Numbered from the stretch's first letter, positions 2,300-18,418 are shown. The stretch: DNA of 64,000 bases from an uncultured bacterium (GCA_937949615.1 CALEDQ010000008.1:243586-307585), one strand, 5' to 3'. A program made the numbers and translations. The notes: generated from the letters alone by a model not told the origin.

Positions 2300-3418
2300 T
2301 CAGGCGCCCTGCTGAATCATTTCATCGTTCTGATGCAACCGGTCACGAATGCAGGCCAGGTCAAAATGTATCTGTCTGAAAGCCTCGACAATTTCTGGGT
2401 CAAAATGTGAGCCGGAGCTTTCAAAAATAATATTACAGGCAGTTTCGTGCGAAAATGGCGGTTTATATGGTCGACGCGATCTAATCGCATCATAGACATC
2501 AGAAATTGCCATAATTCTGGCGCAAAGAGGTATCGCATAGCCAATCAGACCGTCGGGATAGCCACCACCGTTCCATTTTTCGTGATGCGACCGGGTAAGA
2601 GCGATACTCAGATTCAAAAAATCGTTATCAGGGTAACGGCCCCTGATACTTTCAAGAGTTTTGACGCCGATCATCACATGCGTTTTCATTATTTCAAACT
2701 CTTCAGCAGAAAGTTTTCCGGGCTTGAGAAGAATCTGGTCCTGAATACCGACCTTGCCAATATCATGCAGAGGGGCAGCAAAATAAAGATTGTTGATAAA
2801 CCGGTCATCGATCTGTGCCGCATACCTTGAGGTTTTGCGCAGCTGCTCGGCAATGGCACGGCAAAAATCCTGAGTTCTCTCGATATGCCCGCCGGTTGCA
2901 TGGTCGCGCGATTCTGCCAGATTTGCCAGAGCGGTGATCGTTGCAAGCTGTGCGTCAGAAATATCCTGAATTTTTTCCTGAACCAGATCTTCAAGATGCA
3001 GATTATGACGAATAAGCTGGCGCTGCATCGACTGCAGCCGCAGATGGGTTTTCACTCTGGCGAGCACCTCTTCTACTCTGAAGGGCTTGGTAACATAGTC
3101 AACCCCGCCGCTGGAAAAAGCGCGAACCTTCTCTTCTGCCTCGCTCAGCCCGCTGATAAAAATGACCGGCGTCGCTTCAAGACATTTTTCGGCTTTTAAC
3201 TGTTCGCAGAGTTCGAAACCATCCATTTCCGGCATAGTGATATCGAGAATAAAAAGATCGGGTGCGCTGCTCACTGCCTCTGCAAGAGCACGTCGACTGC
3301 TCGAAAATGGCAGCACCCGGTAACCGGCACCTTCGAGCATGAACTGAAGAAGCCGCAGGCTCTCAGGGGTGTCGTCAACAACCATTATTTCAGCATTTTC
3401 TCTCTCTGTCATAACCAA
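2300..3418 (-). CDS. Response regulator with receiver domain and HD-GYP phosphodiesterase domain (RpfG-like c-di-GMP hydrolase)
   Basis: N-terminal receiver ('MVVDDTPESLRLL...FILDITMPEMDGFEL...YVTKPF'). HD-GYP motifs 'PLHDIGKVGI' and 'HHEKWNGGGYPDG'. Its stop lies 10 nt upstream of the kinase start, so they form one operon. Confidence 0.9.
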   Translation of the reverse strand: MVMTERENAEIMVVDDTPESLRLLQFMLEGAGYRVLPFSSSRRALAEAVSSAPDLFILDITMPEMDGFELCEQLKAEKCLEATPVIFISGLSEAEEKVRAFSSGGVDYVTKPFRVEEVLARVKTHLRLQSMQRQLIRHNLHLEDLVQEKIQDISDAQLATITALANLAESRDHATGGHIERTQDFCRAIAEQLRKTSRYAAQIDDRFINNLYFAAPLHDIGKVGIQDQILLKPGKLSAEEFEIMKTHVMIGVKTLESIRGRYPDNDFLNLSIALTRSHHEKWNGGGYPDGLIGYAIPLCARIMAISDVYDAIRSRRPYKPPFSHETACNIIFESSGSHFDPEIVEAFRQIHFDLACIRDRLHQNDEMIQQGA

Positions 3419-3495: not shown

Positions 3496-4848
3496 CTACC
3501 CGGCACCCGGAAAAATCTGCTCTTCATGCGCCATAATCTCATGCGTGAATCTCGCCAGATTCCGGGCATAGAAGTTATAGCCGAGATTCGCCGGAATCGC
3601 GACAGCCGGCAGACACCGCGACCCCGAAAGCCTTTTAAAAATCGAACGCAGCGAATAGGCATGCTGCCACGCATAGATCAGGCCACGCTGCAGATACTCC
3701 GGCGACATATTCTTCGGCCTGAACACCACATGCTCGGCGTCATAAAGCGACCAGTTGCGCTCGATTATGCGCCCCTGACTCTCAAGTTCAGCAAATACCT
3801 GAGTGCCGGGGAAAGGCGTCAGCACAGAGAACTGCGGCAGATCTATCTCGCAGTCGTAGACGAAGTCGACAGTGCGCTTGAAAACATCGCGGTCATCGGT
3901 ATCGAGGCCAAAAACGAAGCAGGCCTGCACCCCGATACCGTGGGCATGCAGCTTTTTGACGGCCTCTTTATATTGCCCGACCTTGTTGAAAGGCTTGCGA
4001 ACCTCATGCAGTGAATCCTGAGAAACCGACTCAAAGCCGATCAACAGGCCGCGGCAACCGCTCTCGGCCATGGTCGCAAGAAATTTCGCATCATGTGCCA
4101 CATCGATGGTGGCACAGCCAACCCACCATTTTTTCAACGGCTTCAGAGCCTTGAAAAATTCCAGCGAAAATTCGCGGTCACAGGTCATGCTCGGGTCGAG
4201 AAAACAAAGCTCCGGCCCGGCAAGGGTTTCGATTTCAGCCATGAGCTCAGCAACCGGCCGCGTAAAATAGCGGTTGTTCCAGGCGGTTGCCACCGCACAG
4301 AACGAACAGCGATGCGCGCAACCACGGGTTGCCTCGATTGAATTAACGGTAACGTATTTTTTCCGGTCGAAAATCGAACGGTCTGGAACCGGCCGGCGGC
4401 ACGAACCCCAGTCAAAATCAGCGCGCATGTGATAGAAAGGCTGCAGTCTGCCGGCCCTGAAATCGCGCAGAGCCTGCGGCCAGGTGTCTTCGGCCAGGCC
4501 GGTGATGACACAGTCGGCGTGCTGTTTTGCTTCATGCGGCATGAGTGTGGCATGAATGCCGCCAATGACGACCGGAATGCGATTCTGCCTGAAAAAATCG
4601 GCAATCGCATAGCCGCGCCGCGCCGTGCCGGTCATTGAGCTGATACCGACCAGATCGACGTCGAGGTGCGAGCGGGGGTCCCAGACTTCGGCACCCTCAT
4701 CGACAACCCTGACTTCGGCCTGCAGTTCAGGCGGAATCAGTGCGACAAGGGTTGCCAGAGTAAGCGGAGCATAGCGCAGCGAGCGCTTATATGAGCCGGA
4801 AACCGCCCGATGAATCGGGCCATGCGGCAGAACCAGCAAAATCTTCAT
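3496..4848 (-). CDS. Cobalamin (B12)-binding radical SAM protein (class B)
   Basis: N-terminal B12-binding-like region ('MKILLVLPHGP...'). Radical SAM cysteine triad 'CAHRCSFC'. ATG start confirmed in the text at 4846-4848. Confidence 0.85.
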   Translation of the reverse strand: MKILLVLPHGPIHRAVSGSYKRSLRYAPLTLATLVALIPPELQAEVRVVDEGAEVWDPRSHLDVDLVGISSMTGTARRGYAIADFFRQNRIPVVIGGIHATLMPHEAKQHADCVITGLAEDTWPQALRDFRAGRLQPFYHMRADFDWGSCRRPVPDRSIFDRKKYVTVNSIEATRGCAHRCSFCAVATAWNNRYFTRPVAELMAEIETLAGPELCFLDPSMTCDREFSLEFFKALKPLKKWWVGCATIDVAHDAKFLATMAESGCRGLLIGFESVSQDSLHEVRKPFNKVGQYKEAVKKLHAHGIGVQACFVFGLDTDDRDVFKRTVDFVYDCEIDLPQFSVLTPFPGTQVFAELESQGRIIERNWSLYDAEHVVFRPKNMSPEYLQRGLIYAWQHAYSLRSIFKRLSGSRCLPAVAIPANLGYNFYARNLARFTHEIMAHEEQIFPGAG

Positions 4849-5035: not shown

Positions 5036-6151
5036 GTGAAATTCCGCACCCTGATCGCTCTGGCTGTCTGTTCCTGCACTTCAGGCCTCTGGGCCGAACC
5101 CTCTGCCCTGGTAAACGATCCGCGCGATCTGCGCCTGATCAACCTCAAAGAAGTCTCCAGCTTCCTTGAAGAAGACCTCGATCTCGGAAAAGGCATAACC
5201 GAAGTGATCGGTAAGCAGGTTATCGACCGCAAATTCCGCAAAGCCGGTATTCCCGACCCCGTTAAATCTCAGCTCAGCTACGCCATCGTTGCCCGTGAAA
5301 TGCCTGCCGAGCAGCTGAACATCTGCTTTATTCTCAAAGGCAATGTCGTGCCCGAAAAATTTCTTGAATTTGCCGGCAATCGCTACGATCGCTATTTCGA
5401 AACCCTCAAAAGCCAGAAACTGGTAAAAGACACTCCGGCACCGGCAGACAAAACCATCGCCGGCAAAAACGCCCGCGTTTTCCCATTCGCTTTCAGAAAT
5501 GCCGAAGCTGTTGTGACCTGGTTCCCCGGTCATACGGTCATTTCAACGGTTCCGGCTGGCGATTATTCGCTGATCAGCGAAACCATCAATGTTCTCGAAG
5601 GCAAAACCCCGGCTTCGAAGGCACAGCCAGATAAAATCGGCTTTATTTCAACATTCGTGCCGATCGACCAGGAAAGAAGCGAAATCCGCAACTTCGAAAA
5701 CCGCTACGATGGCTTTGCCGCAAAAACCCGCAAAAAATTCAAAAAGATTTTCAACCGTGATGCCTATCAGAACAGCGAAGCAATGGCAAAGGCCGAGCAG
5801 CAGCTCAAAAACGCCCTCGCCGACATCGCCCGCTTCTCTTACGATATCAACGCCCGCAAAGAGGGCGAAGGCTATGCCTATGAAGCCAGCATGATCTTCC
5901 GCTGCGCCAACCCCGAAAAGGCCACCGAACTCAAGGAAATGCTGCTCACCTGGCTCGCCTACACTTCTTCCAAATCGCTTTCAGAAGAAGATCTGGTTTC
6001 GATGCGCGCCAATCGCGTCGCCGCGACCGGCTCGACCTGCGTTTTCAATATCAGACTCGGCTCAAGCCAGGAAGAACAGTATCAGTTCTCTTCTCTGATA
6101 ATGAGCCTGATGATGCAGGACCGCCGCTTCAATTCTCTCTTCAAGGGCTGA
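5036..6151 (+). CDS. Secreted hypothetical protein with signal peptide
   Basis: GTG start 6 nt after 'GAGGAG'. N-terminus 'MKFRTLIALAVCSCTSGLWA'. No recognisable catalytic motif. Divergent from the B12-binding radical SAM gene. Confidence 0.6.
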   Translation: MKFRTLIALAVCSCTSGLWAEPSALVNDPRDLRLINLKEVSSFLEEDLDLGKGITEVIGKQVIDRKFRKAGIPDPVKSQLSYAIVAREMPAEQLNICFILKGNVVPEKFLEFAGNRYDRYFETLKSQKLVKDTPAPADKTIAGKNARVFPFAFRNAEAVVTWFPGHTVISTVPAGDYSLISETINVLEGKTPASKAQPDKIGFISTFVPIDQERSEIRNFENRYDGFAAKTRKKFKKIFNRDAYQNSEAMAKAEQQLKNALADIARFSYDINARKEGEGYAYEASMIFRCANPEKATELKEMLLTWLAYTSSKSLSEEDLVSMRANRVAATGSTCVFNIRLGSSQEEQYQFSSLIMSLMMQDRRFNSLFKG

Positions 6152-6156
6152 TCGTT

Positions 6157-8409
6157 TCAGCAATCAGAACGCTGCGGTTCAATCTGAGCCGCAGCGTTTT
6201 TCTTTTTGCGGCCGAACATCAGAATCAGCACCGGCAGCACCAGCAGGTCGCCGGCCAGGCCGATGACGACAACCAGAGTGCCGATCAGGCCAAAGTAAGT
6301 GAATGGCTTGAAGGTGCTGAGCATGAAGATGGCGTTGCCCAGCATCAATAGCAGCGATGATGAGCTCACCGGCACCGCCAGATCGCGAATGGCGGCCATG
6401 ACTTTGCGGGCCTGCGTCGGTTGACGGTTTTCCTGAAGAAAGGTCAGCAGATGCAGGGTGTCGTCGACGATCAGCCCGCTCATGACGCAGCCGACCACGG
6501 CAGTCGAAGGGTTGAGCGGCAGACCAAAATAACCCGCCGCCGCATAAGCCAGCAGAATCGGGTAAAAATTGACCAGCAATGCCACAAATGCCAGATACAG
6601 GCTTCTGAAGACGAGATAGAAAACCGCGATAATCATCAGAACCGCAGCCACAAACGACCAGGTGATGTTTTCGAGTATGCTTTTCTGCATCAGCGCGTTC
6701 AAATAGACATCACCGGTAACATCGACACTCAGAGAAGCCGGCAGGGTTGCAGCAGCCGCAGCCAGAATCTGGACGCGCAACGGCACAATACTGAAGTCAT
6801 CGGTCAGGCTTGTGTGAATCCGCAGCAGCGTCGTCGAAAAATCTGGTGCAATCAGCAGATCGGCAATGCCACGCTGCCCGAAAAAGTCGATCACCGCACG
6901 GCCGAGATCAGGGGTCGCCGGCAACACCGCCGCACCGGTGAACTGCTTATTGAACGCCAGCATCAGGTCGACGATCGAAAAAACCCGGTTGATGCCGGGT
7001 ATCGCCTCGACGCGTTTCTGAAATTCGGCAATCCCGGCGAGTCTTTCTGGTTCCATCAGATCGGGCGCCGAAATCATCACCTGAAAATGGCCCGGCCCAC
7101 AGAACCGGTTGCTGATAAAGGCATGCGCCTGCAGCAGCGGGTCAGCGGCCGAAAAATTGTCAGTCAGCGCATTGCGCGTCTCGATTTTTTGCAGCGCCGG
7201 CACGACCAGCAGCAGCGAAACTGCCGCAAACGCCAGCACCTTCCCCGGGTGCCTGAAGACGATATTGCGAACCAGACGCTGTAGCCAGCGCAACCTGCCC
7301 GGGTCTGAACCTCTAAGGCTGAATTTTGGCTGATAAAGCTTAAAGCAGGCGAAAATCAGGCCGAAAGTCACTATATAGGCAAAAAAGCAGGCCAGCGAGG
7401 TATAGAGCGAAAACAGTCTGATACTTGGCGATGGGCTTTGTGACAGCGACAGAAAGCCGATCAGCGTTGTCAGTGTATTGATCAGACAGGGCCCGATCAG
7501 ACGCCGGTAGTTCTGCTGATGCAGCTCAGCGTAATTCTGGTGCGCGTTTTTTCGTTCTCTGACGAAAAAACTGACAATGTAGATAATCTCGTTGAGCGAG
7601 ATGATCAGAGCGAACGGAATTATCGGCGAGGTGAACAGGTTGATTTTATTGCCGTTCATGAAATAGACGGCGAAGGTCAGCGATGTCGGGGCGGCGATTG
7701 CCAGCAGAATCAGCCCCAACACCAGCGGATCGGGGAACAGATACCAGGCGAGAACCGTGCAACAGATCAGGCCGAGCGTCAGAAAGCGCCGATTGTTTTC
7801 GACGATGAACTCGAAAAACCTTTCCTGAATATACGGAAACCCGAACACATGCAGCTTGACCCGCCCGCTCATATCGACCTGCAGCTCTTTGAGGTGGTTG
7901 TAGAGCGTATGCCGGTAATCTGGTGCGCGAATATCTGGCACAATCAATATCTGCAGCGATTTAAGGTCTTCAGAAACCAGATAACCGCGAAACAATCGGT
8001 CGTTCTGCAGCAGCTCAACCAGATTGCGGATACGAAAGTCCTTGAGATAGGCCGCAAACTCGTCGACCCGGCGAAACGGCCTGAGCACATCGAGAATCGA
8101 CAACACCTGCCGCACTTCAGGCCAGCTGTGAATGCGGTCGACAAGCTCCCAGGCGGTTAAAAGGGAATTGCGATCGATGCCGTCAATATCGAAAGCCAGC
8201 AGAATTGCCTGCTCATGCCCGAAATACCGCCGGTATTCGGCGCGGGTCGCAATTGCCTGCGGGTCAGAAATTCCCGCTTCGAAGTCTTCATCGACTTCGA
8301 CATGCGAAAAAGCGCCAAAACTCATGAGAAAGCTGGCAATAATGACCGCAATGACCGCACCCGGGTGCCCGGCGATAATTTTATAAATCAGACTGGTGAT
8401 TTTCTGCAT
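6157..8409 (-). CDS. MMPL/RND-superfamily exporter, 12 transmembrane helices with two large periplasmic loops (HpnN-like lipid-exporter type)
   Basis: 750 aa. Two blocks of hydrophobic helices are separated by soluble domains. Block 1 includes 'LGLICCTVLAWYLF...LILLAIAAPTSLTFAVYF', block 2 'FVAAVLMIIAVFYLVFRSLYLAFVALLVNFYPILLAYAAAGYFGLPLN'. Last gene of the minus-strand operon. ATG confirmed at 8407-8409. Confidence 0.8.
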   Translation of the reverse strand: MQKITSLIYKIIAGHPGAVIAVIIASFLMSFGAFSHVEVDEDFEAGISDPQAIATRAEYRRYFGHEQAILLAFDIDGIDRNSLLTAWELVDRIHSWPEVRQVLSILDVLRPFRRVDEFAAYLKDFRIRNLVELLQNDRLFRGYLVSEDLKSLQILIVPDIRAPDYRHTLYNHLKELQVDMSGRVKLHVFGFPYIQERFFEFIVENNRRFLTLGLICCTVLAWYLFPDPLVLGLILLAIAAPTSLTFAVYFMNGNKINLFTSPIIPFALIISLNEIIYIVSFFVRERKNAHQNYAELHQQNYRRLIGPCLINTLTTLIGFLSLSQSPSPSIRLFSLYTSLACFFAYIVTFGLIFACFKLYQPKFSLRGSDPGRLRWLQRLVRNIVFRHPGKVLAFAAVSLLLVVPALQKIETRNALTDNFSAADPLLQAHAFISNRFCGPGHFQVMISAPDLMEPERLAGIAEFQKRVEAIPGINRVFSIVDLMLAFNKQFTGAAVLPATPDLGRAVIDFFGQRGIADLLIAPDFSTTLLRIHTSLTDDFSIVPLRVQILAAAAATLPASLSVDVTGDVYLNALMQKSILENITWSFVAAVLMIIAVFYLVFRSLYLAFVALLVNFYPILLAYAAAGYFGLPLNPSTAVVGCVMSGLIVDDTLHLLTFLQENRQPTQARKVMAAIRDLAVPVSSSSLLLMLGNAIFMLSTFKPFTYFGLIGTLVVVIGLAGDLLVLPVLILMFGRKKKNAAAQIEPQRSDC
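6168..6207 (+). terminator. Rho-independent terminator for the 5036..6151 gene, embedded in the 3' coding end of the convergent MMPL gene
   Basis: Stem 'aacgctgcgg' / 'ccgcagcgtt' with an 11-nt loop, followed by 'ttttctttttg'. Confidence 0.6.
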
Positions 8410-8478: not shown

Positions 8479-10971
8479 TCAGCACTGACCGGCAGCGAGA
8501 GATTTGAGCAGCGTGGCGGCGCCTTTGGCGGTTTCGAGAAGTTCGAGGGCGAGATCCTTTTCAGCAGAATCTGCACCGGTCAGCCCGGCCCAGAGGGCAG
8601 CAGGTTCCTGAATGCCGGTGATACGGCAACCGGCTGTGAACAGCATTTTTCGTGCTTCGACTCCTGGCTTTTCAGCCTGCAGTATTCGCCAGACTTCACT
8701 CAGCGCGGCCAAATCAAGGCAGTTGAGCAGACTCTGCATTATTTCGGCGGCGTGCGGGTCACAGCCATCGGCTTTCAACCAGGCGCTGAGCGCAGCAGAG
8801 TTCAGCGCCACACCGTGTGCACCAGCAACACAGGCCGTAATCTTTGCCGGGCAATCGCATTGATCGTGCATTGCAAGCAATTCGAGAAGGGCAATCGCCG
8901 GCAGCCCCGGCAAAAACTGCAGCAGCTTCAGTAACAGCTCGACAAAAATCCGGTCACGCCTGACGCTTGTCAACGAGCTCACTTCTTGCCTGAGACCACA
9001 GGCACCGGCCAGCTGTTCAACCCGGGTCATCAGATCGGCCTGCAGAGCGGCAAGTGCCACTTCAGCGCGAACCCGGTCTTCTGGAAACCGCCGGCCACAT
9101 TCTTCCAGCCAGCCGGCCAGCTCGATCGAGCGCCACTTTTCGCAGCTTTTCATCGCCGCGGCTCTTACTCTGGCCTCTTTATCGAACAACAGCTGCCTGA
9201 GAAGGTCTGAAAAACACCTGTGCGGCAGCTCGCCCAGAACTGCCGCGGCACTGGCCCGACAACCGGCTTCGTCTGATTTTGCCATGGCCAGAAGATCGGC
9301 AAGAGCCGGGCGCAGACTCTCTTCGTCTTCTGCCAGTCTGATCAAAGCAAGAACCGAATTTGCCCTGACGCGATTGTCTGAATGCGACAGCAGCTGCTGC
9401 AGCCACGGAATTGCCCGCCCGCCCGACAATCGATAAGCAGATTCGACCGCATCGGCAATGACTCTCGGAGCATGCCGGCCGGATAAAAAACCGTTCAAAT
9501 CGGCTTCGAGCGAGTGATGACCGTTGCGCCCGGCAATTCTTATCAGCATCGACAATTCTTCGTCAGAGTTCACTCTTTTCAGCATGCCAGCGATGATACC
9601 GGCAGCGAATTCCTGATTGCGCCGGCTCATTCTGCCAAAAAGATACGGCCAGGTCTTCACCGGCTGCCCCGCAACCCGTGCCATTTCGGCTTCATAATCG
9701 AGAACTTCGAAGCCCTCACCGCCCGCGAATCCGATGTCGCGCTCTCTGCCGGCAAGGTTGGCCTGCAGAGCCTTCTGGTAGTCATTAGCGGCCCGACGCG
9801 CCAGCAGCAGATAAAAGCTGCCGGCCCCCAGCAGCAGCCAATAAAAAACCGCATCATCAGCCAAGCCGGCGACAGTTTTCAGCAGCAGCCCGGTCAGAAT
9901 AACCGTCGATGCGAAAATGATACCGTCAGAAAAAAATCTGAACTGATTTCTCAGGGCCTTCTCATAGAGGTTCAGAAAAAGATTGACGAGATTCTGATCG
10001 AAAGTTCTGATACTGAGCAGCAGCATGAACTGAAAAGCCACCAGCCCCTCGAATCCTGGATAAACAAGCATGGTTGCCGCCCCGGCCATCAGAATCGCCG
10101 GCGTCAGAAACAGCAGAGCCGTCGGCCGGAAGCGCTTCAGAAGCCATGGCAGCAGCAGTGACTGAGAAAACAGAGAAATCAGGCGCAGCGAGCTTTCAAA
10201 GGCCCCCGAAAATGAAGCCAGGTCACGTTCATCGACGAATTTTCGACTCAGAGCCGATGCAAACAGATAAGACGAAGAATAGCGGCTGAATGCAAGAACC
10301 ACCATTGAACCGACAATCAGCAGGCTCAATGGATGCCCGGCGGCCAGGCTCAGCGTTTTTTGCCAGCTTACTGTGTGTGTTTCATTTTTCTCTGGCTCAT
10401 CACCCTCTTTTCGTGGCAGAAGGGCTACACATAATGGCAGAAGCAGAAAAATCACGGCACAGGCATAATGACAGGCCGCGTATGAAAACAGCGAAAATAA
10501 GGCCGGCATAAGATAACCAAGCACGATACCACCCGAAAACATTACCCCGGCAATCACCCCGACCCACTGCCGCATCTCGCGAACGGTCAGCAGACTGTTG
10601 GCCGTATTCCAGAAAATTATGCCAAAATAGACGTCATACAACGAAACTGCCACATATACAGCCATTAACTCGAGTTTTCCGAGAACCGCATACTGGCTTC
10701 CGGCAGCACTGATAAGCAGAGCAAAAATCGGCGCCACGATATAACTGGCTCTGAGGCTGGTCTTTTGCCACCTGCGACTGCCCACCATCACCAGACCTGC
10801 GATAAGCGAAAAAACCGAAAGCCAGATGTAGTATTCGGGCAGTGCCGCACGACCAGCGATTTTAAGAAATGATGAAAAGCTCAGCAGCACAGCGAAGGTC
10901 GCCCCGAGTTTGTAGACAAAACCACAGAGGCTCAACAGCAGAATGCGCTTGTCGACAAAACTGTCAGCCAT
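8479..10971 (-). CDS. Fusion protein: N-terminal multi-helix transporter-like domain (MFS or ATP/ADP-translocase-like) plus C-terminal HEAT / PBS-lyase repeat domain
   Basis: About 440 aa of hydrophobic helices, then a soluble region with repeated 'xRVRAxAxxAL' units ('NRVRANSVLALIRLAEDE', 'EARVRAAAMKSCEK', 'DRVRAEVALAAL'). The likely real start is the ATG of 'MADSFVDK', inside the sequence 'aATGGCTGAcag'. That ATG overlaps the TGA stop of the upstream gene by 8 nt. The track start at 11007 is a non-ATG codon. Confidence 0.7.
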   Translation of the reverse strand: MADSFVDKRILLLSLCGFVYKLGATFAVLLSFSSFLKIAGRAALPEYYIWLSVFSLIAGLVMVGSRRWQKTSLRASYIVAPIFALLISAAGSQYAVLGKLELMAVYVAVSLYDVYFGIIFWNTANSLLTVREMRQWVGVIAGVMFSGGIVLGYLMPALFSLFSYAACHYACAVIFLLLPLCVALLPRKEGDEPEKNETHTVSWQKTLSLAAGHPLSLLIVGSMVVLAFSRYSSSYLFASALSRKFVDERDLASFSGAFESSLRLISLFSQSLLLPWLLKRFRPTALLFLTPAILMAGAATMLVYPGFEGLVAFQFMLLLSIRTFDQNLVNLFLNLYEKALRNQFRFFSDGIIFASTVILTGLLLKTVAGLADDAVFYWLLLGAGSFYLLLARRAANDYQKALQANLAGRERDIGFAGGEGFEVLDYEAEMARVAGQPVKTWPYLFGRMSRRNQEFAAGIIAGMLKRVNSDEELSMLIRIAGRNGHHSLEADLNGFLSGRHAPRVIADAVESAYRLSGGRAIPWLQQLLSHSDNRVRANSVLALIRLAEDEESLRPALADLLAMAKSDEAGCRASAAAVLGELPHRCFSDLLRQLLFDKEARVRAAAMKSCEKWRSIELAGWLEECGRRFPEDRVRAEVALAALQADLMTRVEQLAGACGLRQEVSSLTSVRRDRIFVELLLKLLQFLPGLPAIALLELLAMHDQCDCPAKITACVAGAHGVALNSAALSAWLKADGCDPHAAEIMQSLLNCLDLAALSEVWRILQAEKPGVEARKMLFTAGCRITGIQEPAALWAGLTGADSAEKDLALELLETAKGAATLLKSLAAGQC

Positions 10972-12067
10972 TCCAGAGGTCCGTCCAGGTGCGGTTGAGC
11001 ATGGCATCCCTGCGAATCTTGTCGTTCAACTCATTGAAGGCCTCAAGTGCTTCGCCGGCTTCTCCAGAAGCCTGGTGCCCGATGCGGTCAACTGCCCGCC
11101 CCTGCCGCAACTGTTTGAGACCGGCAATCAGAAGCTGCAGAGGCCTGATAAAGACCGCGGCGGCCCTGAGCCCGAAAAAAACTGCGAGGGCCGCAATTAT
11201 CAGCAGATAAAAAACAACACGGTTGCGCAGATGATCCAATAGACCGGTAACCGATGTTTCAGGCATGCCGACGCAGACTTCAAGGCCAGCTTCCTGAACC
11301 AGATGCAGCGAGAAAAGATAGCCGGCGGTGCGCATCGATTCAGCCAGAAAATGATTTTCGGCATCGATGCAGGTCGGTGGTATTGTTCCGGTCTGCACCA
11401 GTACACGGCCCTGATGATCGAGTAAAGCAATGCAGGCATCGGGAGCCGGTTTCATCGCTTCCATGCTTTCGCCGAGTCGCGAGGTCTGATCGAGAACCAT
11501 GCCGCAGCTGAGAATACCTTGCAGCTGGCCGCCAGCCTGCACCGGCAAAATGAAAGAACTCATCAGTCTTCCGGAATCGGATTTGAAAAAACGCGAAAAA
11601 ACCAGACTGCCCTGATCGCGGGCTTTCAGCAGATCCTGATAAAGATTGGCAGTGGCCGGGTTTTCACCGTATTTCATAAAATTCTCGCCGGCATACTGGC
11701 TGAGATCTCGATTATCGGCATAAGCAACCGCCACCAGCGGCCCCGACGGCGAAAAATAGTAGATATTATTGAACATGCTCGATGAAAACAGAGCAGCCGC
11801 AAGAAATTTCTGAATCGCCTGTGAATCGCCTGAATGAAGAATTTCATTGGCTGCAAGCCTCTGCATCGCCTCTCTGGCATCACGGGCGCGCTGATTCAGA
11901 CCGGCCCCGATCGCCGCAGCCACATTGTCGATGGCTGTCGATGCCTGCGCCAGAATCACCCGGCGGCTCTCATGGTAACTGAGCCAGCCGGAAACCATTA
12001 TTGCCACAACGCTGATAGCGACGAACAGAAAGGCGGTCTGATAATAAAGACTGAATCTGAATTTCAT
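10964..12067 (-). CDS. Membrane sensor with periplasmic Cache-like domain, second transmembrane helix and cytoplasmic HAMP domain; no output domain
   Basis: TM1 'FLFVAISVVAIMVSGWL', a periplasmic domain of about 250 aa, TM2 'VVFYLLIIAALAVFFGL', then HAMP-like 'IRPLQLLIAGLKQLRQGRAVDRIGHQASGEAGEALEAFNELNDKI', ending 'WNG*'. Probable start is the ATG of 'MKFRFSLYY', preceded by 'AGGTGA'. The track start at 12112 is upstream of that. Confidence 0.7.
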   Translation of the reverse strand: MKFRFSLYYQTAFLFVAISVVAIMVSGWLSYHESRRVILAQASTAIDNVAAAIGAGLNQRARDAREAMQRLAANEILHSGDSQAIQKFLAAALFSSSMFNNIYYFSPSGPLVAVAYADNRDLSQYAGENFMKYGENPATANLYQDLLKARDQGSLVFSRFFKSDSGRLMSSFILPVQAGGQLQGILSCGMVLDQTSRLGESMEAMKPAPDACIALLDHQGRVLVQTGTIPPTCIDAENHFLAESMRTAGYLFSLHLVQEAGLEVCVGMPETSVTGLLDHLRNRVVFYLLIIAALAVFFGLRAAAVFIRPLQLLIAGLKQLRQGRAVDRIGHQASGEAGEALEAFNELNDKIRRDAMLNRTWTDLWNG

Positions 12068-12071
12068 CGGA

Positions 12072-13205
12072 TCACCTACTGAAGCGACTGCAGAGCATGC
12101 CTTTGATGCCAAGCTGCCGCTCGATTATCAATGCTTCGAAATCGAAACCGTAACAGCTTTTGCCGTGCCGGCTGCACTGGTCACAGTTCTTGAAATGACT
12201 GACAACCGTTTTGCGAAAATCATCGAGAACCTGGCTTCTGCTCCAGATATCGACGATATCATCCTCGGGCAGTCGCCCCAGGCAGAGTTCTGGGTTCAGA
12301 TAGCTCGCATAATGATGTGGCCAGACCCGCCCGTCGGCTGTGAGACAAAGGGCAGTAAACCCCGCCGGTACCGGAATTTCGACCGGCGCCGGCCGCCTCT
12401 GGCTGCCGATCGCAGAGCAGGCCACCGGGTATGCCGGGTATTGCCGCTGCAGTGCTTTAACCCTGACAGCAAGTTCTTCAAGGGCATTTTCGTCGAGCAG
12501 CAGATGCTGCATGTTTCTCGCCCTGCCGATCAGGCGAATGTGAAAGATATTCATACCGGCGCTGCAGGTGGTTGCCCAGGCGAAAATCTCTTCGAGGCGG
12601 GCAAGATTCTGGCGGTGCGCCAGCAGATTGATACGCACCGGCACCCGGTTGGCGGCGAAAAGCTGCAGAGAGCGATGCACCGAGGCGAAAGCACCCGCCC
12701 CACGCAGGGCATCATGAACATCGGGCGGGCCGTCGACGCTCACGGTCACCTGATCGCAGGCAAGCGCGGCAAGCTTCGCGACAAAAACGTCGGGGTCGTC
12801 ATATACCCCGTTGGTCTGCAGCGAGACCACAAGACCGAGCCCGCGGGCATATTCGAGGATCTGAAGCAGGTCTGAACGAAGCGAAGGTTCGCCACCGGTG
12901 AATCTGACGTTGATAACGCCTGCAGCGGCCAGCTGGCGCAATACCGCAAAAACGGTTTCTGACGGCAGCTCTGAGGGATCAGCAGTTCGACAGCTGGCAA
13001 AACACTGCTGGCAATGAAGATTGCATCGCCTTGTCAGCTCGTAATAAACAGCTACCGGCGACGATATTATATCTCTACGCCCGTTTATAACAGCAGAAAC
13101 TGGTTTTGCCCCAGATGGACAGGCGGCGGTTTCAGAAAAAACCGTAGAAAAATTCTGTGAATCAAATATGGCGCTGCCAAAAAATTCCGGTCTGAAAAAC
13201 TTCAT
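12072..13205 (-). CDS. Radical SAM protein with C-terminal SPASM/twitch auxiliary Fe-S domain
   Basis: Radical SAM triad 'CNLHCQQC'. C-terminal cysteine cluster 'CLGRLPED...CDQCSRHGKSCYG'. ATG at 13203-13205 lies 2 nt after the stop of the upstream B12-binding radical SAM gene. Confidence 0.85.
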   Translation of the reverse strand: MKFFRPEFFGSAIFDSQNFSTVFSETAACPSGAKPVSAVINGRRDIISSPVAVYYELTRRCNLHCQQCFASCRTADPSELPSETVFAVLRQLAAAGVINVRFTGGEPSLRSDLLQILEYARGLGLVVSLQTNGVYDDPDVFVAKLAALACDQVTVSVDGPPDVHDALRGAGAFASVHRSLQLFAANRVPVRINLLAHRQNLARLEEIFAWATTCSAGMNIFHIRLIGRARNMQHLLLDENALEELAVRVKALQRQYPAYPVACSAIGSQRRPAPVEIPVPAGFTALCLTADGRVWPHHYASYLNPELCLGRLPEDDIVDIWSRSQVLDDFRKTVVSHFKNCDQCSRHGKSCYGFDFEALIIERQLGIKGMLCSRFSR

Positions 13206-13207
13206 GT

Positions 13208-14566
13208 TCAGTTTTCTCCGGCAGCAGCGGTTTTCAAGGCCTCCGCACTGGTTTCACTCATATTTTCTACTGCCGAATAGGCCGCTCTGACGATTTTCAC
13301 CATCTGATCATGCTTGAAAAAGACATTCACATCAGATGCTGGCACACTCGAATACCGTGCCAGCTTTGCATCGGCAAGGCGTTCTTCTGACGGAACACTG
13401 ATCGCCTGATGAATCTGCGACTGCCACAGATCGGCGCCGAACTGCTGTGAAAGCTGGGTTCCGGCATAGAGAACCACCGGAAAAAAAGTGCAGTCGCTCA
13501 TGCCAAGGCGCTTCAGTTCGATGGCAAAATTAACGGTCGCTGCCATTTCTTCAGGGGTTTCATCAGGAAACCCGAGCATGAAGAAACCGCGCGAGTAAAT
13601 GTGGCGTTGCCCGAGAAAGCCCACAGTGCTGCGCACCCGGTCAAGGTCGAGAAACTTTTGCAGCGCCTTCTGGCGCTCGCGGCTTGCAGTTTCAACGCCC
13701 ATCGAAACGAAATTACAGCCGGTTCTGGCCAGGTCATCGGCAATTTCAGCGGTAATGTGATCGGCACGCCCGATGCAGCTGTAAGTTACATCGAGCTTTG
13801 CAATACCGGCGAAAAAATCGGCAAGCCAGCGGCGGTCACTGAAGAACGAATCATCGAGAAAACCGATATTGATGCGGCCATAGCGCCCGGCATGAAACGC
13901 AACTTCGCGCAGCACGCGATCGACCGAATAGCGCCTGACTTTGCCCGGCCAGAGTTTTGGCGAGGCACAGTAGGTGCAGCGGCAGGCGCAGCCACGCGAA
14001 GTCGTCATAAATACCGAGCGCGGCACTTTGAGCTGATCCTGCAGAGCAAAGTAATCTGGCATCGAAACGAGCTGATAATCAAGAAATGGCAGAATATCGA
14101 GATTGGCAATTTCATTGCCGTTAATTGTCACTGTTGCTTCTTCGGCCGGGCGATCTGATCTGATCAGGTCTTCAAGTGCCGTTTCGCCTTCGCCGACAAT
14201 CGCAAAATCAACAAGATGCGCATCGATTATCCGGCCCGGCATTGCCGTCAGCAGGGGACCGCCGCCAATTGTTCGAATTTCGGGCACTTCAACCTTGAGA
14301 GCCCGGCACAACTTTGCTGCGGTAGCCTCGGTGCCCTGATAGAAGGGAATCCCAACCCATTTCGGGGCGACAGCCCTTATTTCTGCAAGCGTTTGTGGCA
14401 GGTCGAGCTGCTGCTGTGAGGCGTCGAGAATTCTGGTGCCGATTCCCTTAGAGTTCAGCCATGAAGCAAGATAAATCAGGTTGACCGGTGGCTTCAGATC
14501 GACCATTGCGCGCGTATCCCAGCTCAGGGGGAACGAAACGAGTATGACTTCACTCTGACTGTTCAT
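13208..14566 (-). CDS. Cobalamin (B12)-binding radical SAM protein (class B)
   Basis: B12-binding-like N-terminus ('VILVSFPLSWDT...LIYLASWLNSKG'). Radical SAM triad 'CACRCTYC'. The track start at 14584 is TTG. An ATG ('MNSQSE') at about 14566 sits 6 nt after 'GAAAGG' and is the more likely start. Confidence 0.85.
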   Translation of the reverse strand: MNSQSEVILVSFPLSWDTRAMVDLKPPVNLIYLASWLNSKGIGTRILDASQQQLDLPQTLAEIRAVAPKWVGIPFYQGTEATAAKLCRALKVEVPEIRTIGGGPLLTAMPGRIIDAHLVDFAIVGEGETALEDLIRSDRPAEEATVTINGNEIANLDILPFLDYQLVSMPDYFALQDQLKVPRSVFMTTSRGCACRCTYCASPKLWPGKVRRYSVDRVLREVAFHAGRYGRINIGFLDDSFFSDRRWLADFFAGIAKLDVTYSCIGRADHITAEIADDLARTGCNFVSMGVETASRERQKALQKFLDLDRVRSTVGFLGQRHIYSRGFFMLGFPDETPEEMAATVNFAIELKRLGMSDCTFFPVVLYAGTQLSQQFGADLWQSQIHQAISVPSEERLADAKLARYSSVPASDVNVFFKHDQMVKIVRAAYSAVENMSETSAEALKTAAAGEN

Positions 14567-15581
14567 CAAAAACCTTTCTGACAAAAGACTCAGGCGAAAT
14601 TTCGCGGGCGGTGACCGCCAGCAGGCTGCCGGAACCCTCGATATGCCTCAGACCGGCGACCATGTCGGCACAGCTTAAGCCAATCTGTTCAAGTCCGGCA
14701 AGATTTACCGGAAGTCCAAGACGCACACACATGGCACGAAACTTTTTCAACAGGTCGTATGAGCCGGTTTGCCCGGCAAATGCCCAGACATTCATCAGTG
14801 ACCCGGCGGCAACCAGTTCGCCATGAAATGGCTTTAATGCGTCATTGTAGAGATGGCTTTCCATTATCGCATAATAGAGTTTGTGCTCGCCGCCGGCGCT
14901 CAGCTCGGTATTGCCGCGCTTGATCACCATCAGCGAGCTGGCATGCGAGTAGCGGGCAAGACGGCGCATGGCCATGCGGTTGAAGCCATTAAAGCGGTTC
15001 AATACCCAGTCGATGGCATTGAAATAGAAAGCGGCGAGTTCTTCAATTTCAGAGCGACTGAAACTGCCGCTTTGAAAGCTGTAATCGATGGCAGCACTGA
15101 TGCCGGCAAAAAAGTCACCGAAACCGGCGCGTGCCGCCCGCAGAACCGTAGGGTTAACTGCGGTTTCAAGAAATTCATCGAGAATAAAAACCGTTTCAGG
15201 GGCCCGGGTTTTGCTGGCTCTGAATTTTCCCTCGTATTTGAGCACGCTGCGGTCAACACTGATGCATGAAGTCGACAGAAATGTCGGAATCAGCAAAAGC
15301 GGCCGGTCGGCAACATGAGCGCAGGCCCTTGCCACATCGAGAGCGGCACAGCCCCCCACCCCGACGTATCTGACGGCCTTGCCGCTTACGGCAATTATGG
15401 CCTCGATGTTGCGGGCGCAGTTCGAGTCGATGACACGCAGCAGCGGCAGCTTCTGCAGTCTTTCCTGCTGTGAATCATCGGTGATGAAAAATGTCTGACC
15501 GTCGTCGAGTGCCGCAGTGAGTTCGAGCAGCGACGACGCCGTAAAAACCAGCTCAGGCCTTTTCCATAGCGAATTCTGCAT
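14550..15581 (-). CDS. DHQS/Fe-ADH-superfamily enzyme: sugar-phosphate cyclase, glycerol-1-phosphate-dehydrogenase-like or iron-containing alcohol dehydrogenase
   Basis: Nucleotide-binding motif 'YVGVGGCAALDVARACAH' followed by 'LLLIPTFLSTSCISVDRSV'. Compare the dehydroquinate synthase pattern 'GGGvvgD...vPTTLLSQVDSSVGGK'. I take the ATG at 15581 ('MQNSLWKRPELVFTAS') as the start. The 42-codon track extension to 15707 is Cys/Trp-rich and unconvincing. Confidence 0.65.
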   Translation of the reverse strand: MQNSLWKRPELVFTASSLLELTAALDDGQTFFITDDSQQERLQKLPLLRVIDSNCARNIEAIIAVSGKAVRYVGVGGCAALDVARACAHVADRPLLLIPTFLSTSCISVDRSVLKYEGKFRASKTRAPETVFILDEFLETAVNPTVLRAARAGFGDFFAGISAAIDYSFQSGSFSRSEIEELAAFYFNAIDWVLNRFNGFNRMAMRRLARYSHASSLMVIKRGNTELSAGGEHKLYYAIMESHLYNDALKPFHGELVAAGSLMNVWAFAGQTGSYDLLKKFRAMCVRLGLPVNLAGLEQIGLSCADMVAGLRHIEGSGSLLAVTAREISPESFVRKVFDEQSE

Positions 15582-15733
15582 TGAAAATCCCGACAACCGA
15601 ACTTGATGAGCCGCCACAATTATACCTGTACAACCGCAAAAACCTAAGCCCCATCTGCAGATTTTCAATGGCAATCTTTGCAACAGTTTCTCGAAATTAT
15701 CGAACAACCTGCTTATGCCATAAAAACTCAGTT

Positions 15734-16468
15734 TTATCTGGTCGAATTTGCGGCAAGCACGCCGGCAAGCGCGTCGGCAACGTCGCCGGAGTAAACGCCG
15801 CCGTGGTAATTGATAATCTCGCTGATTTTGAGGCTTTGCATTTTTCGAATCGATGCGAGGGCAGCGTTCATATCGAGCGTGAACTGCGGGTTCGGCAATA
15901 TCATCCGGCCGTCCTCGACAGCAGTGGCATCACCGGCAACAAAGATTCCACGATCTTCGACGTAGAGTGAAATGTGCCCCGGGGTGTGGCCGGGCGTCGC
16001 AATGACTCTGACACTCTCGCTGAGACGCTCGCCGTCATCAACCAGCCGGTCGACCGGGCAGATGTCGATGGTCTTCAGATAAGCGGCAAAACGTTCACCA
16101 AAATCCCGCTCACTGCCAACAAGCGTCTTATTGTGTTCTTCAGCCTGCTGCAGTCGCAGCGAAACCTTTTTACCGGCAATATAATCTGCTTCTGAACGGC
16201 CGGCAACGATTCTGACCGCCGGGTGCATCATTTTCAGAGCCAGCAGAGAACCGACATGATCATGGTCGTGGTGCGAAACGACAATCATGGTCAGGTCTTT
16301 AACCGCCAGGCCATGTCTGGCCAGTTCCCTGGCAATATCCTCGGCCTGCCCCGGGTAACCGGCATCAAAAAGAATCCGCTCGTCATTGTCGATGAACAGA
16401 ACCGGGTTAACTTCTGACTTAAAGGCCCCAAAATCCTTAACAAGACGCAAAATATGATGTATAAACAT
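15734..16468 (-). CDS. MBL-fold metallo-hydrolase
   Basis: 'MIVVSHHDHDHVGS' (HxHxDH zinc motif) and 'ATPGHTPGH'. First gene of the minus-strand operon. ATG confirmed in the text. Confidence 0.85.
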   Translation of the reverse strand: MFIHHILRLVKDFGAFKSEVNPVLFIDNDERILFDAGYPGQAEDIARELARHGLAVKDLTMIVVSHHDHDHVGSLLALKMMHPAVRIVAGRSEADYIAGKKVSLRLQQAEEHNKTLVGSERDFGERFAAYLKTIDICPVDRLVDDGERLSESVRVIATPGHTPGHISLYVEDRGIFVAGDATAVEDGRMILPNPQFTLDMNAALASIRKMQSLKISEIINYHGGVYSGDVADALAGVLAANSTR

Positions 16469-17242: not shown

Positions 17243-18418
17243 TTGCTGTATATTTGTTGTGAAAAACCACTCAGGAGATTTCATATCAACAGCTCAATCA
17301 AAACCGGTCTGCTGCTTTTTTCGTTTGTTGCCTCAACCCTGCTGACCCCGGCAGTCTGCACCGCTCAGCGCGCCAGCAATCCAGACTTTCCGCAATATGA
17401 AAGTTCTGGTTATTCAGATTATCCTGAAATGACCGAGCCTGAACCGGGCGCCGATGAATCGACCAGCGTCTACGAATACCTCGATCGTGAAGGCGAATCT
17501 GGCAGTGAAGACTCAGAAAATTATTATGACGAGCCCAATTATGAATCTGCCGGCACCGGCGAATACGACGAAACCACAGATGTCAGCGAAGCTGCTGAGT
17601 CCGCTCCGCCACCGGCACGCCAGCTGCTCAAGCCCGGCGCCCCGATCGATATCGCCGAAAAAACCATTCGCGTCGGGCGTATCCCCTACCTCAGCGTTAA
17701 ACAGCTGATGGCCCAGGCGGTACCGCTGCTGCGCAATCTGCAGAAACGCACCGGCGCCAAAGAAGTCAGGCTGGTTTCGAGCGGCTCATATTCAGATATC
17801 ATCAGCGCCCTGGCCCGCGGAAAAATCGATTTCGCCTGGGTGGGCCCGACCGCCTATCTCAAACACCGCGACAAAGAGAACCTGATGGCGGTTGCCAAAG
17901 CAAAATTCGGCGACGAAACCGCCTACCGCGGCGTCTTTATCGCGCCGGCCAAAGGCAAAGTGCAGGGCCTCGAAGATCTCAGCGGAAACATCGTCGGCTT
18001 CGTCGACCCCGAATCGGCAAGCGGCTACATCTACCCCAACTACCTTCTGAAAACTCTGAAAATCAGACTGAACAAAAAGACCCGCGTCGCCTTTCTCAAA
18101 AACCACGACAATGTTCTGCTGGCGGTTTTAAAAGGCAAAATCGACGCCGGGGCCTGTCTCGAAAAGACCATTACCGCCTCGAAAATCAAAGATCTCGATA
18201 AAAGAATCATCGTTCTCGCAAAGACCGAAGAAATACCCTCTGACGTCATCGTCTGCCGTCAGGACTGCGCAGCGAATCTGCGCGAAAAATTTCAGGAAGC
18301 CCTCACCAGCATCAAACCAGGCGAACTGCCCGGCAGTCCGCTGACCTTTCTTGCCGCCAGCGACGATGAATTTGCACCTGTCGAAGCGGTGATGCGCTAT
18401 CTCAAGCTGCTACCCTGA
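17243..18418 (+). CDS. Phosphonate/phosphite-type ABC transporter substrate-binding protein (PhnD-like) with an acidic Tyr/Glu/Asp-rich N-terminal extension; no cognate ATPase or permease adjacent
   Basis: Signal-like segment 'LLLFSFVASTLLTPAVCTA'. Acidic tract 'YESSGYSDYPEMTEPEPGADESTSVYEYLDREGESGSEDSENYYDEPNYESAGTGEYDETTD'. PhnD-like core 'GRIPYLSVKQLM...DFAWVGPTAYLKH...YRGVFIA...GNIVGFVDPESASGYIYP'. The track start is TTG. Confidence 0.7.
   Translation: MLYICCEKPLRRFHINSSIKTGLLLFSFVASTLLTPAVCTAQRASNPDFPQYESSGYSDYPEMTEPEPGADESTSVYEYLDREGESGSEDSENYYDEPNYESAGTGEYDETTDVSEAAESAPPPARQLLKPGAPIDIAEKTIRVGRIPYLSVKQLMAQAVPLLRNLQKRTGAKEVRLVSSGSYSDIISALARGKIDFAWVGPTAYLKHRDKENLMAVAKAKFGDETAYRGVFIAPAKGKVQGLEDLSGNIVGFVDPESASGYIYPNYLLKTLKIRLNKKTRVAFLKNHDNVLLAVLKGKIDAGACLEKTITASKIKDLDKRIIVLAKTEEIPSDVIVCRQDCAANLREKFQEALTSIKPGELPGSPLTFLAASDDEFAPVEAVMRYLKLLP

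Follow-up and report, generated by a model that had tools for sequence, protein, structure and literature searches.

An output-less dCache-HAMP receptor is encoded in a conserved pair with an NTT-like/HEAT carrier protein

HAMP domains are textbook in-line relays, and a receptor that ends with one raises the question of what receives its signal. Such a receptor is encoded in a 64,000-nucleotide stretch of DNA from an uncultured bacterium (GCA_937949615.1, CALEDQ010000008.1:243586-307585; hereafter the window), where a sensor gene with a periplasmic double Cache (dCache) domain and a terminal HAMP domain overlaps the gene of a membrane carrier-like protein that bears HEAT repeats. The first-pass annotation of this DNA proposed that the HAMP output acts directly on the neighboring transporter-HEAT protein, and offered a truncated sensor as the alternative. 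The sensor gene, its domains and transmembrane (TM) segments are located as follows, with support from hydropathy, AlphaFold2 (AF2) models and homology:

10964..12067, minus strand: sensor gene, 367-amino-acid (aa) output-less dCache-HAMP receptor, ATG 12067, TGA 10964-10966 (open reading frame, homologues, AF2, fold matches)
11978..12046, minus strand: TM1, residues ~8-30 (hydropathy peak 11-29; begins a long AF2 helix, 7-72)
11219..11977, minus strand: periplasmic dCache ectodomain, residues ~31-283, ~250 aa (Pfam, Foldseek, family profile)
11150..11218, minus strand: TM2, residues ~284-306 (hydropathy peak 289-307; AF2 helix 270-321)
10997..11149, minus strand: HAMP domain, residues ~307-357 (AS1 from P309, connector with G323, AS2 'SGEAGEALEAFNELNDKI')
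10967..10996, minus strand: conserved C-terminal Trp tail NRTWTDLWNG (W-x3-W), the last 10 residues, after AS2
10964..10971, minus strand: 8-nt stop/start overlap ATGGCTGA, in which the sensor reads ...W N G stop and the partner M A D...

The sensor starts at ATG 12067 (MKFRFSLYY...), a position common to all homologues, which begin MKF(R/S)FSLY; a longer reading frame from TTG 12112 was rejected because it overlaps the upstream gene and lacks homologue support. The protein ends ...TWTDLWNG and has no kinase, GGDEF or MCP domain. The layout first proposed for it, in which a TM segment, a periplasmic domain, a second TM segment and HAMP are followed by a stop at 'WNG', was confirmed by the reading frame, hydropathy, AF2 and the fold and profile matches.

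The AF2 model of the sensor, built on nine sequences (mean pLDDT 80.7), runs from a long N-terminal helix through two alpha/beta modules to the TM2/AS1 helix, the connector, AS2 and a short terminal helix, the TM2, HAMP and tail region consisting of helices 270-321, 336-356 and 361-366. A long helix and two tandem PAS-like modules thus lie between two TM helices, as in the dCache fold, and Foldseek searches of the PDB returned the dCache ligand-binding domains of KinD, Mlp24/37, PctC and DctB (E values 1e-9 to 1e-7) and of TlpQ, together with full-length models of MCPs (chemoreceptors). A profile of the family likewise matches KinD in the PDB (E=4.9e-9). Against the Pfam dCache_1 model (PF02743) the sensor reaches E=3.7e-7 but only 30.4 bits, where the gathering score is 45, while several homologues carry a precomputed PF02743 match. 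The residue spacing in the sensor showed no obvious match to the amino-acid-binding dCache motif; its four cysteines (in the contexts SCG, ACI, TCI and VCV) form no CXXCH motif, and the ectodomain similarity to Pfam LapD_MoxY_N is insignificant (E=0.078).

The HAMP assignment rests on profiles and signature residues. Pfam HAMP (PF00672) does not match the window sensor even at E<=10; relatives do match it, with 43 bits in one distant Riflebacteria locus (L023) and through precomputed matches in homologues. The HAMP regions of NCBIfam histidine-kinase models align to sensor residues ~280-353, and the family profile matches the HAMP domains of Tsr (E=2.4e-8) and HtrII in the PDB. The characteristic Pro of AS1 (P309), Gly of the connector (G323) and Glu of AS2 (E336) are conserved, the latter two being invariant across 48 family members. 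The domain search proposed in the first-pass annotation therefore identifies dCache by fold and profile and HAMP by profile and signature, while neither the Pfam gathering score for dCache_1 nor a Pfam HAMP match is obtained for the window protein itself.

Is this sensor complete? A word-indexed search found eight close homologue clusters, all of 362-384 aa, and a second one using an alignment of the whole family found Riflebacteria members only. Scanning one genome per species gave 18 loci, nearly all labelled Candidatus Riflebacteria or Ozemobacteraceae, one of them 95% identical to the window. Sensor homologues in other genomes proved equally output-less: the 23 copies found in the fetched loci, 362-395 aa in length, all stop 1-45 residues past HAMP. 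A profile search of 1.84 billion representatives produced 993 matches, the best ~60 clusters of which are nearly all 350-420 aa, aligned end to end and free of orthologues with a C-terminal output domain; relatives with kinase or other output domains emerge only from about E=1e-11. No fusion of sensor and partner (Rosetta-stone) occurs among the top 150 representatives. A metagenome scan with a subgroup alignment, whose patterns are those of generic HAMP, added no family members, all 80 loci being ordinary output-bearing kinases, cyclases and the like; the distant members came from the representative search and from direct gene-context look-ups. Their hosts include Wallbacteria, Cloacimonadota and a 'Deltaproteobacteria' metagenome-assembled genome, and their source annotation is merely 'cache and HAMP domain-containing protein'. 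These distant members continue past HAMP with the motif L-x-K-x-R-x-I-E-x-(I/L)-W-x3-W, and in a 48-sequence alignment of 30% mean identity W361 (window numbering) is nearly invariant. Family members also lie on contigs labelled Candidatus Methylomirabilis (L016, DYKG01000001.1) and Erysipelotrichia (L008, SABV01000227.1); as their neighbors and sequences look Riflebacteria-like, these contigs could be mis-binned or represent horizontal transfers.

The sensor is a complete conserved protein and not a truncated one. Output-less HAMP proteins are unusual (bioRxiv 10.64898/2026.05.25.727664), which is what speaks for decay of a longer sensor or for a frameshift that hides an output domain. Length and end are nevertheless uniform in 23 of 23 copies and in dozens of distant clusters, the tail is conserved, Pfam and NCBIfam searches revealed no trace of a kinase, GGDEF or MCP domain, and the DNA beyond the stop codon encodes, in another frame, a partner conserved over its whole length. 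Together these observations refute a truncation or a hidden frameshift, which we regard as having practically no chance of being correct.

The protein whose gene begins within the end of the sensor gene has two parts:

8479..10971, minus strand: partner gene, 830 aa, NTT-like MFS domain and HEAT solenoid, start ATG 10971 and not 11007
9751..10971, minus strand: partner membrane domain, residues 1-407, 12-helix (6+6) MFS fold closest to NTT ATP/ADP translocators
8482..9696, minus strand: partner cytoplasmic HEAT/PBS-lyase-like alpha-solenoid, residues 426-830 (HEAT_2, profile, AF2)

Partner homologues of 826-832 aa begin MAD, MAE or MPE at the overlapped ATG. Hydropathy analysis shows 11 segments in residues 1-391 of the partner, and the AF2 model (nine sequences, pLDDT 82.1) places membrane helices at 4-183 and 203-407, followed by a disordered linker and all-helical repeats at 426-827. 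The Pfam MFS_1 model matches the N-terminal half at 33.5 bits, marginally above its cut-off of 33.4, and no match to Pfam TLC (PF03219) was found at E<=1 in five partner proteins, which match MFS_1 instead. At the level of structure, the first Foldseek match of the membrane domain is the nucleotide translocator AtNTT1 (9j3j, E=4.4e-8), and C. pneumoniae NTT1 also ranks high, ahead of generic MFS carriers such as NorA, MelB, YajR and VMAT. When a 12-sequence partner profile was compared with the PDB, AtNTT1 was the only significant carrier (E=1.2e-6), with C. pneumoniae NTT1 at E=0.0099. The C-terminal half matches HEAT_2 (43.7 bits) and HEAT (24 bits) in Pfam, and its profile matches alphaRep, PBS-lyase-type HEAT proteins, MTH187, CpcE and YibA. 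The combination of an NTT-like membrane domain with C-terminal HEAT repeats points to the partner as a remote relative of the NTT-HEAT architecture. Of the 'MFS-HEAT fusion' first described here, the MFS fold and the HEAT repeats stand, but the protein is better described as NTT-like/HEAT.

The junction of the two genes reads TGG AAT GGC TGA in the raw sequence, with the partner's ATG GCT GAC beginning at 10971, and the overlap 'aATGGCTGAc' noted at the outset corresponds exactly to these 8 nt. Such a stop/start overlap argues for translational coupling, not necessarily for 1:1 stoichiometry, so that the earlier statement that the two proteins are 'made stoichiometrically' overstates what the overlap shows.

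Is this arrangement particular to one genome? Sensor and partner genes are adjacent in 13 distinct loci, down to ~16-30% identity, from Riflebacteria (two paralogous types), Wallbacteria and metagenome contigs:

Riflebacteria cassette-type loci: 47-95% identity, 8-nt overlap with the partner gene
Distant Riflebacteria type: ~16-20% identity, 2-nt gap or 4-nt overlap
L109: 4-nt gap from sensor to partner
L111, 5.2-Mb contig: 8-nt overlap
L112, Wallbacteria: 8-nt overlap
L113: 37-nt gap
L114: 13-nt overlap

A hidden Markov model (HMM) of the window-type partner matches the partners at all these loci over most or all of the length of the model (E from 1e-139 to 6e-42); in the distant type the partner is 925 aa in L023 and L024 and is cut by the contig end in L025 and L026. 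The overlap design TGGAATGNNTGA, in which Trp-Asn-x-stop lies over ATG-NNT-GA, recurs in Riflebacteria, L111 and Wallbacteria although their sensors are only ~28-30% identical. Other neighbors of the pair change between lineages. Pairwise identities of sensors and partners are correlated (Spearman 0.76, 45 pairs), although shared species history contributes to this value. Homologous sensors thus adjoin transporter-HEAT genes at 13 loci in several phyla, with the exceptions described below, and the sequence comparisons strongly support the sensor-partner pairing as a conserved unit.

The exceptions were found among sensors outside the cassette, where all open reading frames (ORFs) near the paralogues were screened with the partner HMM; at four loci the downstream DNA is too short for a verdict. 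A third Riflebacteria sensor paralogue (41-45% identity) lies outside the cassette, and at three loci (L016, L021, L022) the sensor gene is followed after 49-56 nt by that of a ~540-aa protein with HEAT repeats first and multiple TM segments last, an architecture inverted with respect to the window partner (HEAT_2 51 bits):

L016:11169-12797: HEAT-first protein gene
L021:5524-7146: HEAT-first protein gene
L022:3474-5096: HEAT-first protein gene

The recurrence of a HEAT-bearing membrane protein as the neighbor, in two architectures, points to HAMP-HEAT as a conserved relationship. All 13 sensors with an NTT-like/HEAT partner have the W-x3-W tail, versus 7 of 15 other paralogues (Fisher p=0.0025 for partnered sensors against all others, uncorrected for phylogeny), the latter comprising none of the three beside the HEAT-first variant and four of the eight truly standalone copies. 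By this distribution the tail tracks the NTT-like partner specifically, and what it touches may be the carrier domain or the membrane interface and not HEAT.

A precedent for a HAMP-terminating receptor that acts on a separate protein exists. In the study of Deshpande, Xu, Dunleavy, Zhulin and Crane (bioRxiv 10.64898/2026.05.25.727664), the output-less Cache_heme-HAMP (CHH) receptor binds an operon-encoded Ser/Thr kinase with nanomolar affinity, the helical modules of the kinase clasp the receptor HAMP, and the result depends on ligand binding. As in CHH, the window protein combines a periplasmic Cache-fold sensor, a TM region and HAMP as the last domain, with no enzymatic output of its own and a neighboring gene that supplies, or may supply, the output; the CHH partner contacts HAMP through alpha-helical modules. 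The two systems also differ. The window sensor is a double Cache without the CXXCH heme motif and has an additional conserved Trp tail, and its partner is a polytopic NTT-like/HEAT carrier, not a soluble kinase; domain searches of the window and of the cassette-type loci revealed no kinase in the sensor's operon. CHH is found in Proteobacteria and the window family in Riflebacteria, Wallbacteria and Cloacimonadota, with no sequence-level link between them.

These comparisons suggest a model, toward which we incline without great firmness, in which the terminal-HAMP receptor acts in trans on the HEAT-bearing NTT-like transporter, the two forming a ligand-controlled transporter of two proteins. 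Pairwise contact, the direction of signaling and the gating of transport are the parts of this model that we infer. The dCache domains of a dimeric receptor would sense a periplasmic ligand, and the signal would pass through TM2 into the HAMP four-helix bundle. As the sensor has no enzymatic output of its own, the output would be the NTT-like/HEAT carrier, whose translation from the shared mRNA is coupled to that of the sensor. The HAMP bundle and the Trp tail would dock on the HEAT solenoid, on the cytoplasmic face of the carrier, or on both, and ligand occupancy of dCache would switch carrier activity, yielding a ligand-gated transporter of two polypeptides. A bolder version, possible but decidedly tentative, holds that allosteric gating of the carrier is the sole output of HAMP, that the receptor dimer clamps the HEAT solenoid and thereby lets an extracellular ligand switch the transport of a nucleotide-like metabolite on or off, and that HEAT is a general docking adaptor for HAMP or for cyclic-nucleotide (cNMP)-binding domains (cNBD).

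Several observations weigh against control of the carrier by the sensor. Eight Riflebacteria paralogues have no HEAT protein within ~2.4-10 kb downstream and lie beside unrelated neighbors, so that the HAMP-only design does not strictly need an adjacent partner. The absence of the Trp tail from sensors beside the HEAT-first variant argues that the tail is not a universal HEAT-binding element. Neither the co-variation of identities nor the tail comparison is corrected for shared phylogeny, and adjacency by itself is also compatible with co-regulation without contact. Finally, given the missing Pfam TLC/NTT match and the borderline MFS_1 score, the partner could be a non-transporting 'transceptor'. 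The original proposal that HAMP acts on the neighboring transporter-HEAT protein is thus favored by a pairing and overlap conserved over several phyla and by the CHH precedent, and is weakened by the paralogues that lack an adjacent partner.

Three other explanations of the pair deserve consideration. Since neither protein has a classical output, the architecture does not fix the direction of signaling, and the NTT-like/HEAT protein could instead report its state to HAMP, with dCache serving as the output or as a co-sensor, for example by capturing a PhnD-like binding protein. A gene for such a protein directly follows the pair in L023, L024 and L109 and another lies nearby in the window (17243-18418), the ectodomain shows the very weak LapD_MoxY_N similarity described above, and in BceAB-BceS a transporter is said to control the HAMP-like conformation of its sensor. 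Yet the fold of the ectodomain is that of an ordinary ligand-binding dCache, with small-molecule sensors as its nearest relatives, the LapD_MoxY_N match is insignificant, most pair loci lack the binding-protein gene, and a binding protein could equally be a helper that presents the ligand for outside-in sensing; we consider such reversed signaling unlikely.

Slightly more doubtful still is the idea that the dCache-HAMP protein is a passive subunit, anchored to the transporter for structural reasons or to recruit substrate, and does not switch. Tight translational coupling and co-diversification are what obligate subunits would show, and the sensor has no output domain; the canonical Pro/Gly/Glu signature of HAMP is, however, kept throughout the family at ~20% identity, which would be difficult to account for in a passive anchor, and standalone sensor paralogues exist. 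MFS and NTT carriers are not known to need periplasmic receptor subunits. The sensor might also heterodimerize with an unlinked kinase, cyclase or PP2C phosphatase that contains HAMP, its adjacency to the HEAT gene reflecting only co-expression. HAMP-containing signaling proteins are abundant in this genome, the window itself encoding a HAMP-GAF-GGDEF protein and two HAMP-SpoIIE proteins, and the paralogues without an adjacent partner would fit such a scheme. What makes it improbable, and in our estimate the least probable of these three, is that all other neighbors change from phylum to phylum whereas adjacency, gene order and even the codon design of the overlap persist, a linkage much stronger than co-expression requires. 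Ligand-dependent control of the carrier by the receptor accordingly stays the explanation that we prefer, at the modest strength given above.

How does the pair compare with other systems in which transporters, HEAT repeats or HAMP domains meet? NTT-HEAT proteins often carry or neighbor a cNMP-binding domain and are widespread and uncharacterized (Major, Embley, Williams 2017, PMC5381601). Both they and the window partner consist of an NTT-related carrier followed by HEAT repeats (PF13646/PF02985), with a sensor module attached or next door. In the window partner, kinship to NTT is seen at the profile (E=1.2e-6) and fold level only, without a Pfam TLC match, and the sensor is a transmembrane dCache-HAMP receptor with an upstream gene of its own, where NTT-HEAT-cNBD proteins have a cNMP-binding domain that is cytoplasmic and lies downstream. 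That cNMP-binding domain would be the cytoplasmic counterpart of the HAMP sensor arrangement, and its frequent presence in NTT-HEAT proteins (PMC5381601) fits a role of HEAT as an adaptor between a sensor module and a carrier. Canonical dCache-HAMP sensors (B. subtilis KinD, Vibrio Mlp24/Mlp37, Pseudomonas PctA/B/C, DctB) share the ectodomain fold and the TM-dCache-TM-HAMP half but continue into a kinase or MCP domain, whereas the window family stops ~10-45 residues past HAMP.

Membrane transporters or 7-TM proteins form one complex with a HAMP transducer in DcuS-DctA, UhpB-UhpC and sensory rhodopsin II-HtrII, and the transporter and HAMP-bearing transducer of BceS-BceAB reportedly do so as well. 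In these systems it is the transporter that senses, and the HAMP protein retains a kinase or MCP output, whereas here neither protein has an enzymatic output. LapD, in which HAMP is said to couple cytoplasmic and periplasmic events and thereby to control LapG binding, resembles the window sensor in its TM-periplasmic domain-TM-HAMP topology but carries GGDEF-EAL input domains that the sensor lacks, the Pfam similarity between them being the insignificant one already given (E=0.078). In the literature library that was searched, no paper joins HAMP, HEAT and Cache, and the only three that mention NTT-HEAT describe no Cache-HAMP partner for it. This suggests that the pairing of a dCache-HAMP receptor with an NTT-like/HEAT protein as a two-protein ligand-controlled transporter is previously undescribed.

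What might such a pair control? In the window it is embedded in an operon with enzyme and transporter genes:

14550..15707, minus strand: Fe-ADH_2 / glycerol(-1-phosphate) dehydrogenase-like gene, the first of the conserved cassette genes
13208..14584, minus strand: B12-binding radical SAM gene (Pfam B12-binding and Radical_SAM), true start probably downstream of TTG 14584
12072..13205, minus strand: radical SAM/SPASM gene (Pfam, NCBIfam), ending 4 nt before the sensor ATG; upstream of cassette-type sensors
6157..8409, minus strand: MMPL/HAE3-type RND transporter gene, 69 nt beyond the partner gene, kept in L003, L005 and L006
6166..6200, plus strand: strong hairpin with a 16-bp stem between convergent genes, likely the operon end

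The dehydrogenase-like enzyme is closest to glycerol and glycerol-1-phosphate dehydrogenases (GldA/G1PDH); its gene is kept in L001, L003, L005 and L006, and Wallbacteria have a counterpart close to the pair. The B12-binding radical SAM protein is AprD4-like, its nearest NCBIfam models being TIGR04072 and HpnJ, both below cut-off, and the radical SAM/SPASM protein has PqqE, SkfB and GDGT-MAS as its PDB relatives. The MMPL gene is the last before the terminator. Given that the pair is embedded in this dehydrogenase, radical SAM and MMPL operon, it probably governs whether a substrate, cofactor or product of the pathway is taken up or released, and an operon product of lipid or cyclitol type is plausible. 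No part of the window matched a riboswitch or any other RNA family in Rfam, a promoter scan gave no signal above shuffled sequences, and PADLOC found no defense-system match for sensor or partner. The PADLOC matches of the radical SAM proteins to pVip were dismissed as generic similarity of the core.

The triad of dehydrogenase, B12-binding radical SAM and radical SAM/SPASM genes stands beside the pair in the window (12072-15707, minus strand), in L001 and L003-L006, and in Wallbacteria (L112:11630-15250), where the same three gene types are convergent, on the opposite strand and in a different order. Neither the triad nor a PhnD-like gene lies beside the pair in L111, L113 or L114; in L113, and only there, a Pkinase gene is found 1 kb further on. 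The metallo-beta-lactamase-fold gene that heads the cassette (window 15734-16468, minus strand) is a variable accessory, being present in L006 and absent at that place from the 95%-identical L005. Downstream of MMPL, three more genes are kept in L003, L005 and L006, namely a second B12-binding radical SAM gene (3496-4848, minus strand), a 371-aa ORF without a Pfam match (5036-6151, plus strand) and a response-regulator/HD-GYP gene (2300-3418, minus strand).

In two distant subfamilies of the pair, periplasmic PhnD-like binding proteins (PF12974) are encoded directly after it, at L023:11974-12846 and L109:4135-5019, and also after the L024 pair, while the window copy near the cassette (17243-18418, plus strand) has a long acidic low-complexity N-terminal region. 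Elsewhere in the window (20865-24058, minus strand), the end of a HAMP-GAF-GGDEF gene overlaps the start of an NMT1_3/PhnD-like binding-protein gene by 4 nt, a second case in the window of a transmembrane signaling protein coupled to a periplasmic binding protein. Two tandem overlapping genes (56444-62114, plus strand) encode ~940-aa membrane proteins with HAMP and a SpoIIE/PP2C phosphatase domain, and homologous tandem pairs lie a few kb from standalone sensors in L011, L017, L018 and L019. A 1760-aa hybrid histidine kinase (40034-45316, minus strand) combines an extracellular SBP_bac_3 domain with several PAS domains, GAF, HisKA/HATPase, a receiver and Hpt, and together with an NMT1-HK-RR protein at 25188-27863 it indicates that binding-protein-type inputs are common among the sensors of this genome.

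Receptors that terminate in HAMP were shown to signal in trans, to a kinase, only in 2026 (bioRxiv 10.64898/2026.05.25.727664). If the proposed mechanism is correct, the window sensor family would represent a second and different trans solution, with a transporter as the output, in several poorly known phyla. NTT-HEAT-type proteins, which occur from cyanobacteria to Chlamydia and oomycetes, are uncharacterized (PMC5381601), and the sensor-partner pair gives a testable hypothesis for the role of their HEAT domain. The ligand of the sensor could reveal the pathway served by the radical SAM, dehydrogenase and MMPL operon of Riflebacteria, and the pair, if it works as in the bolder version of the model, would provide the first functional handle on these widespread NTT-HEAT proteins, including the chlamydial one.

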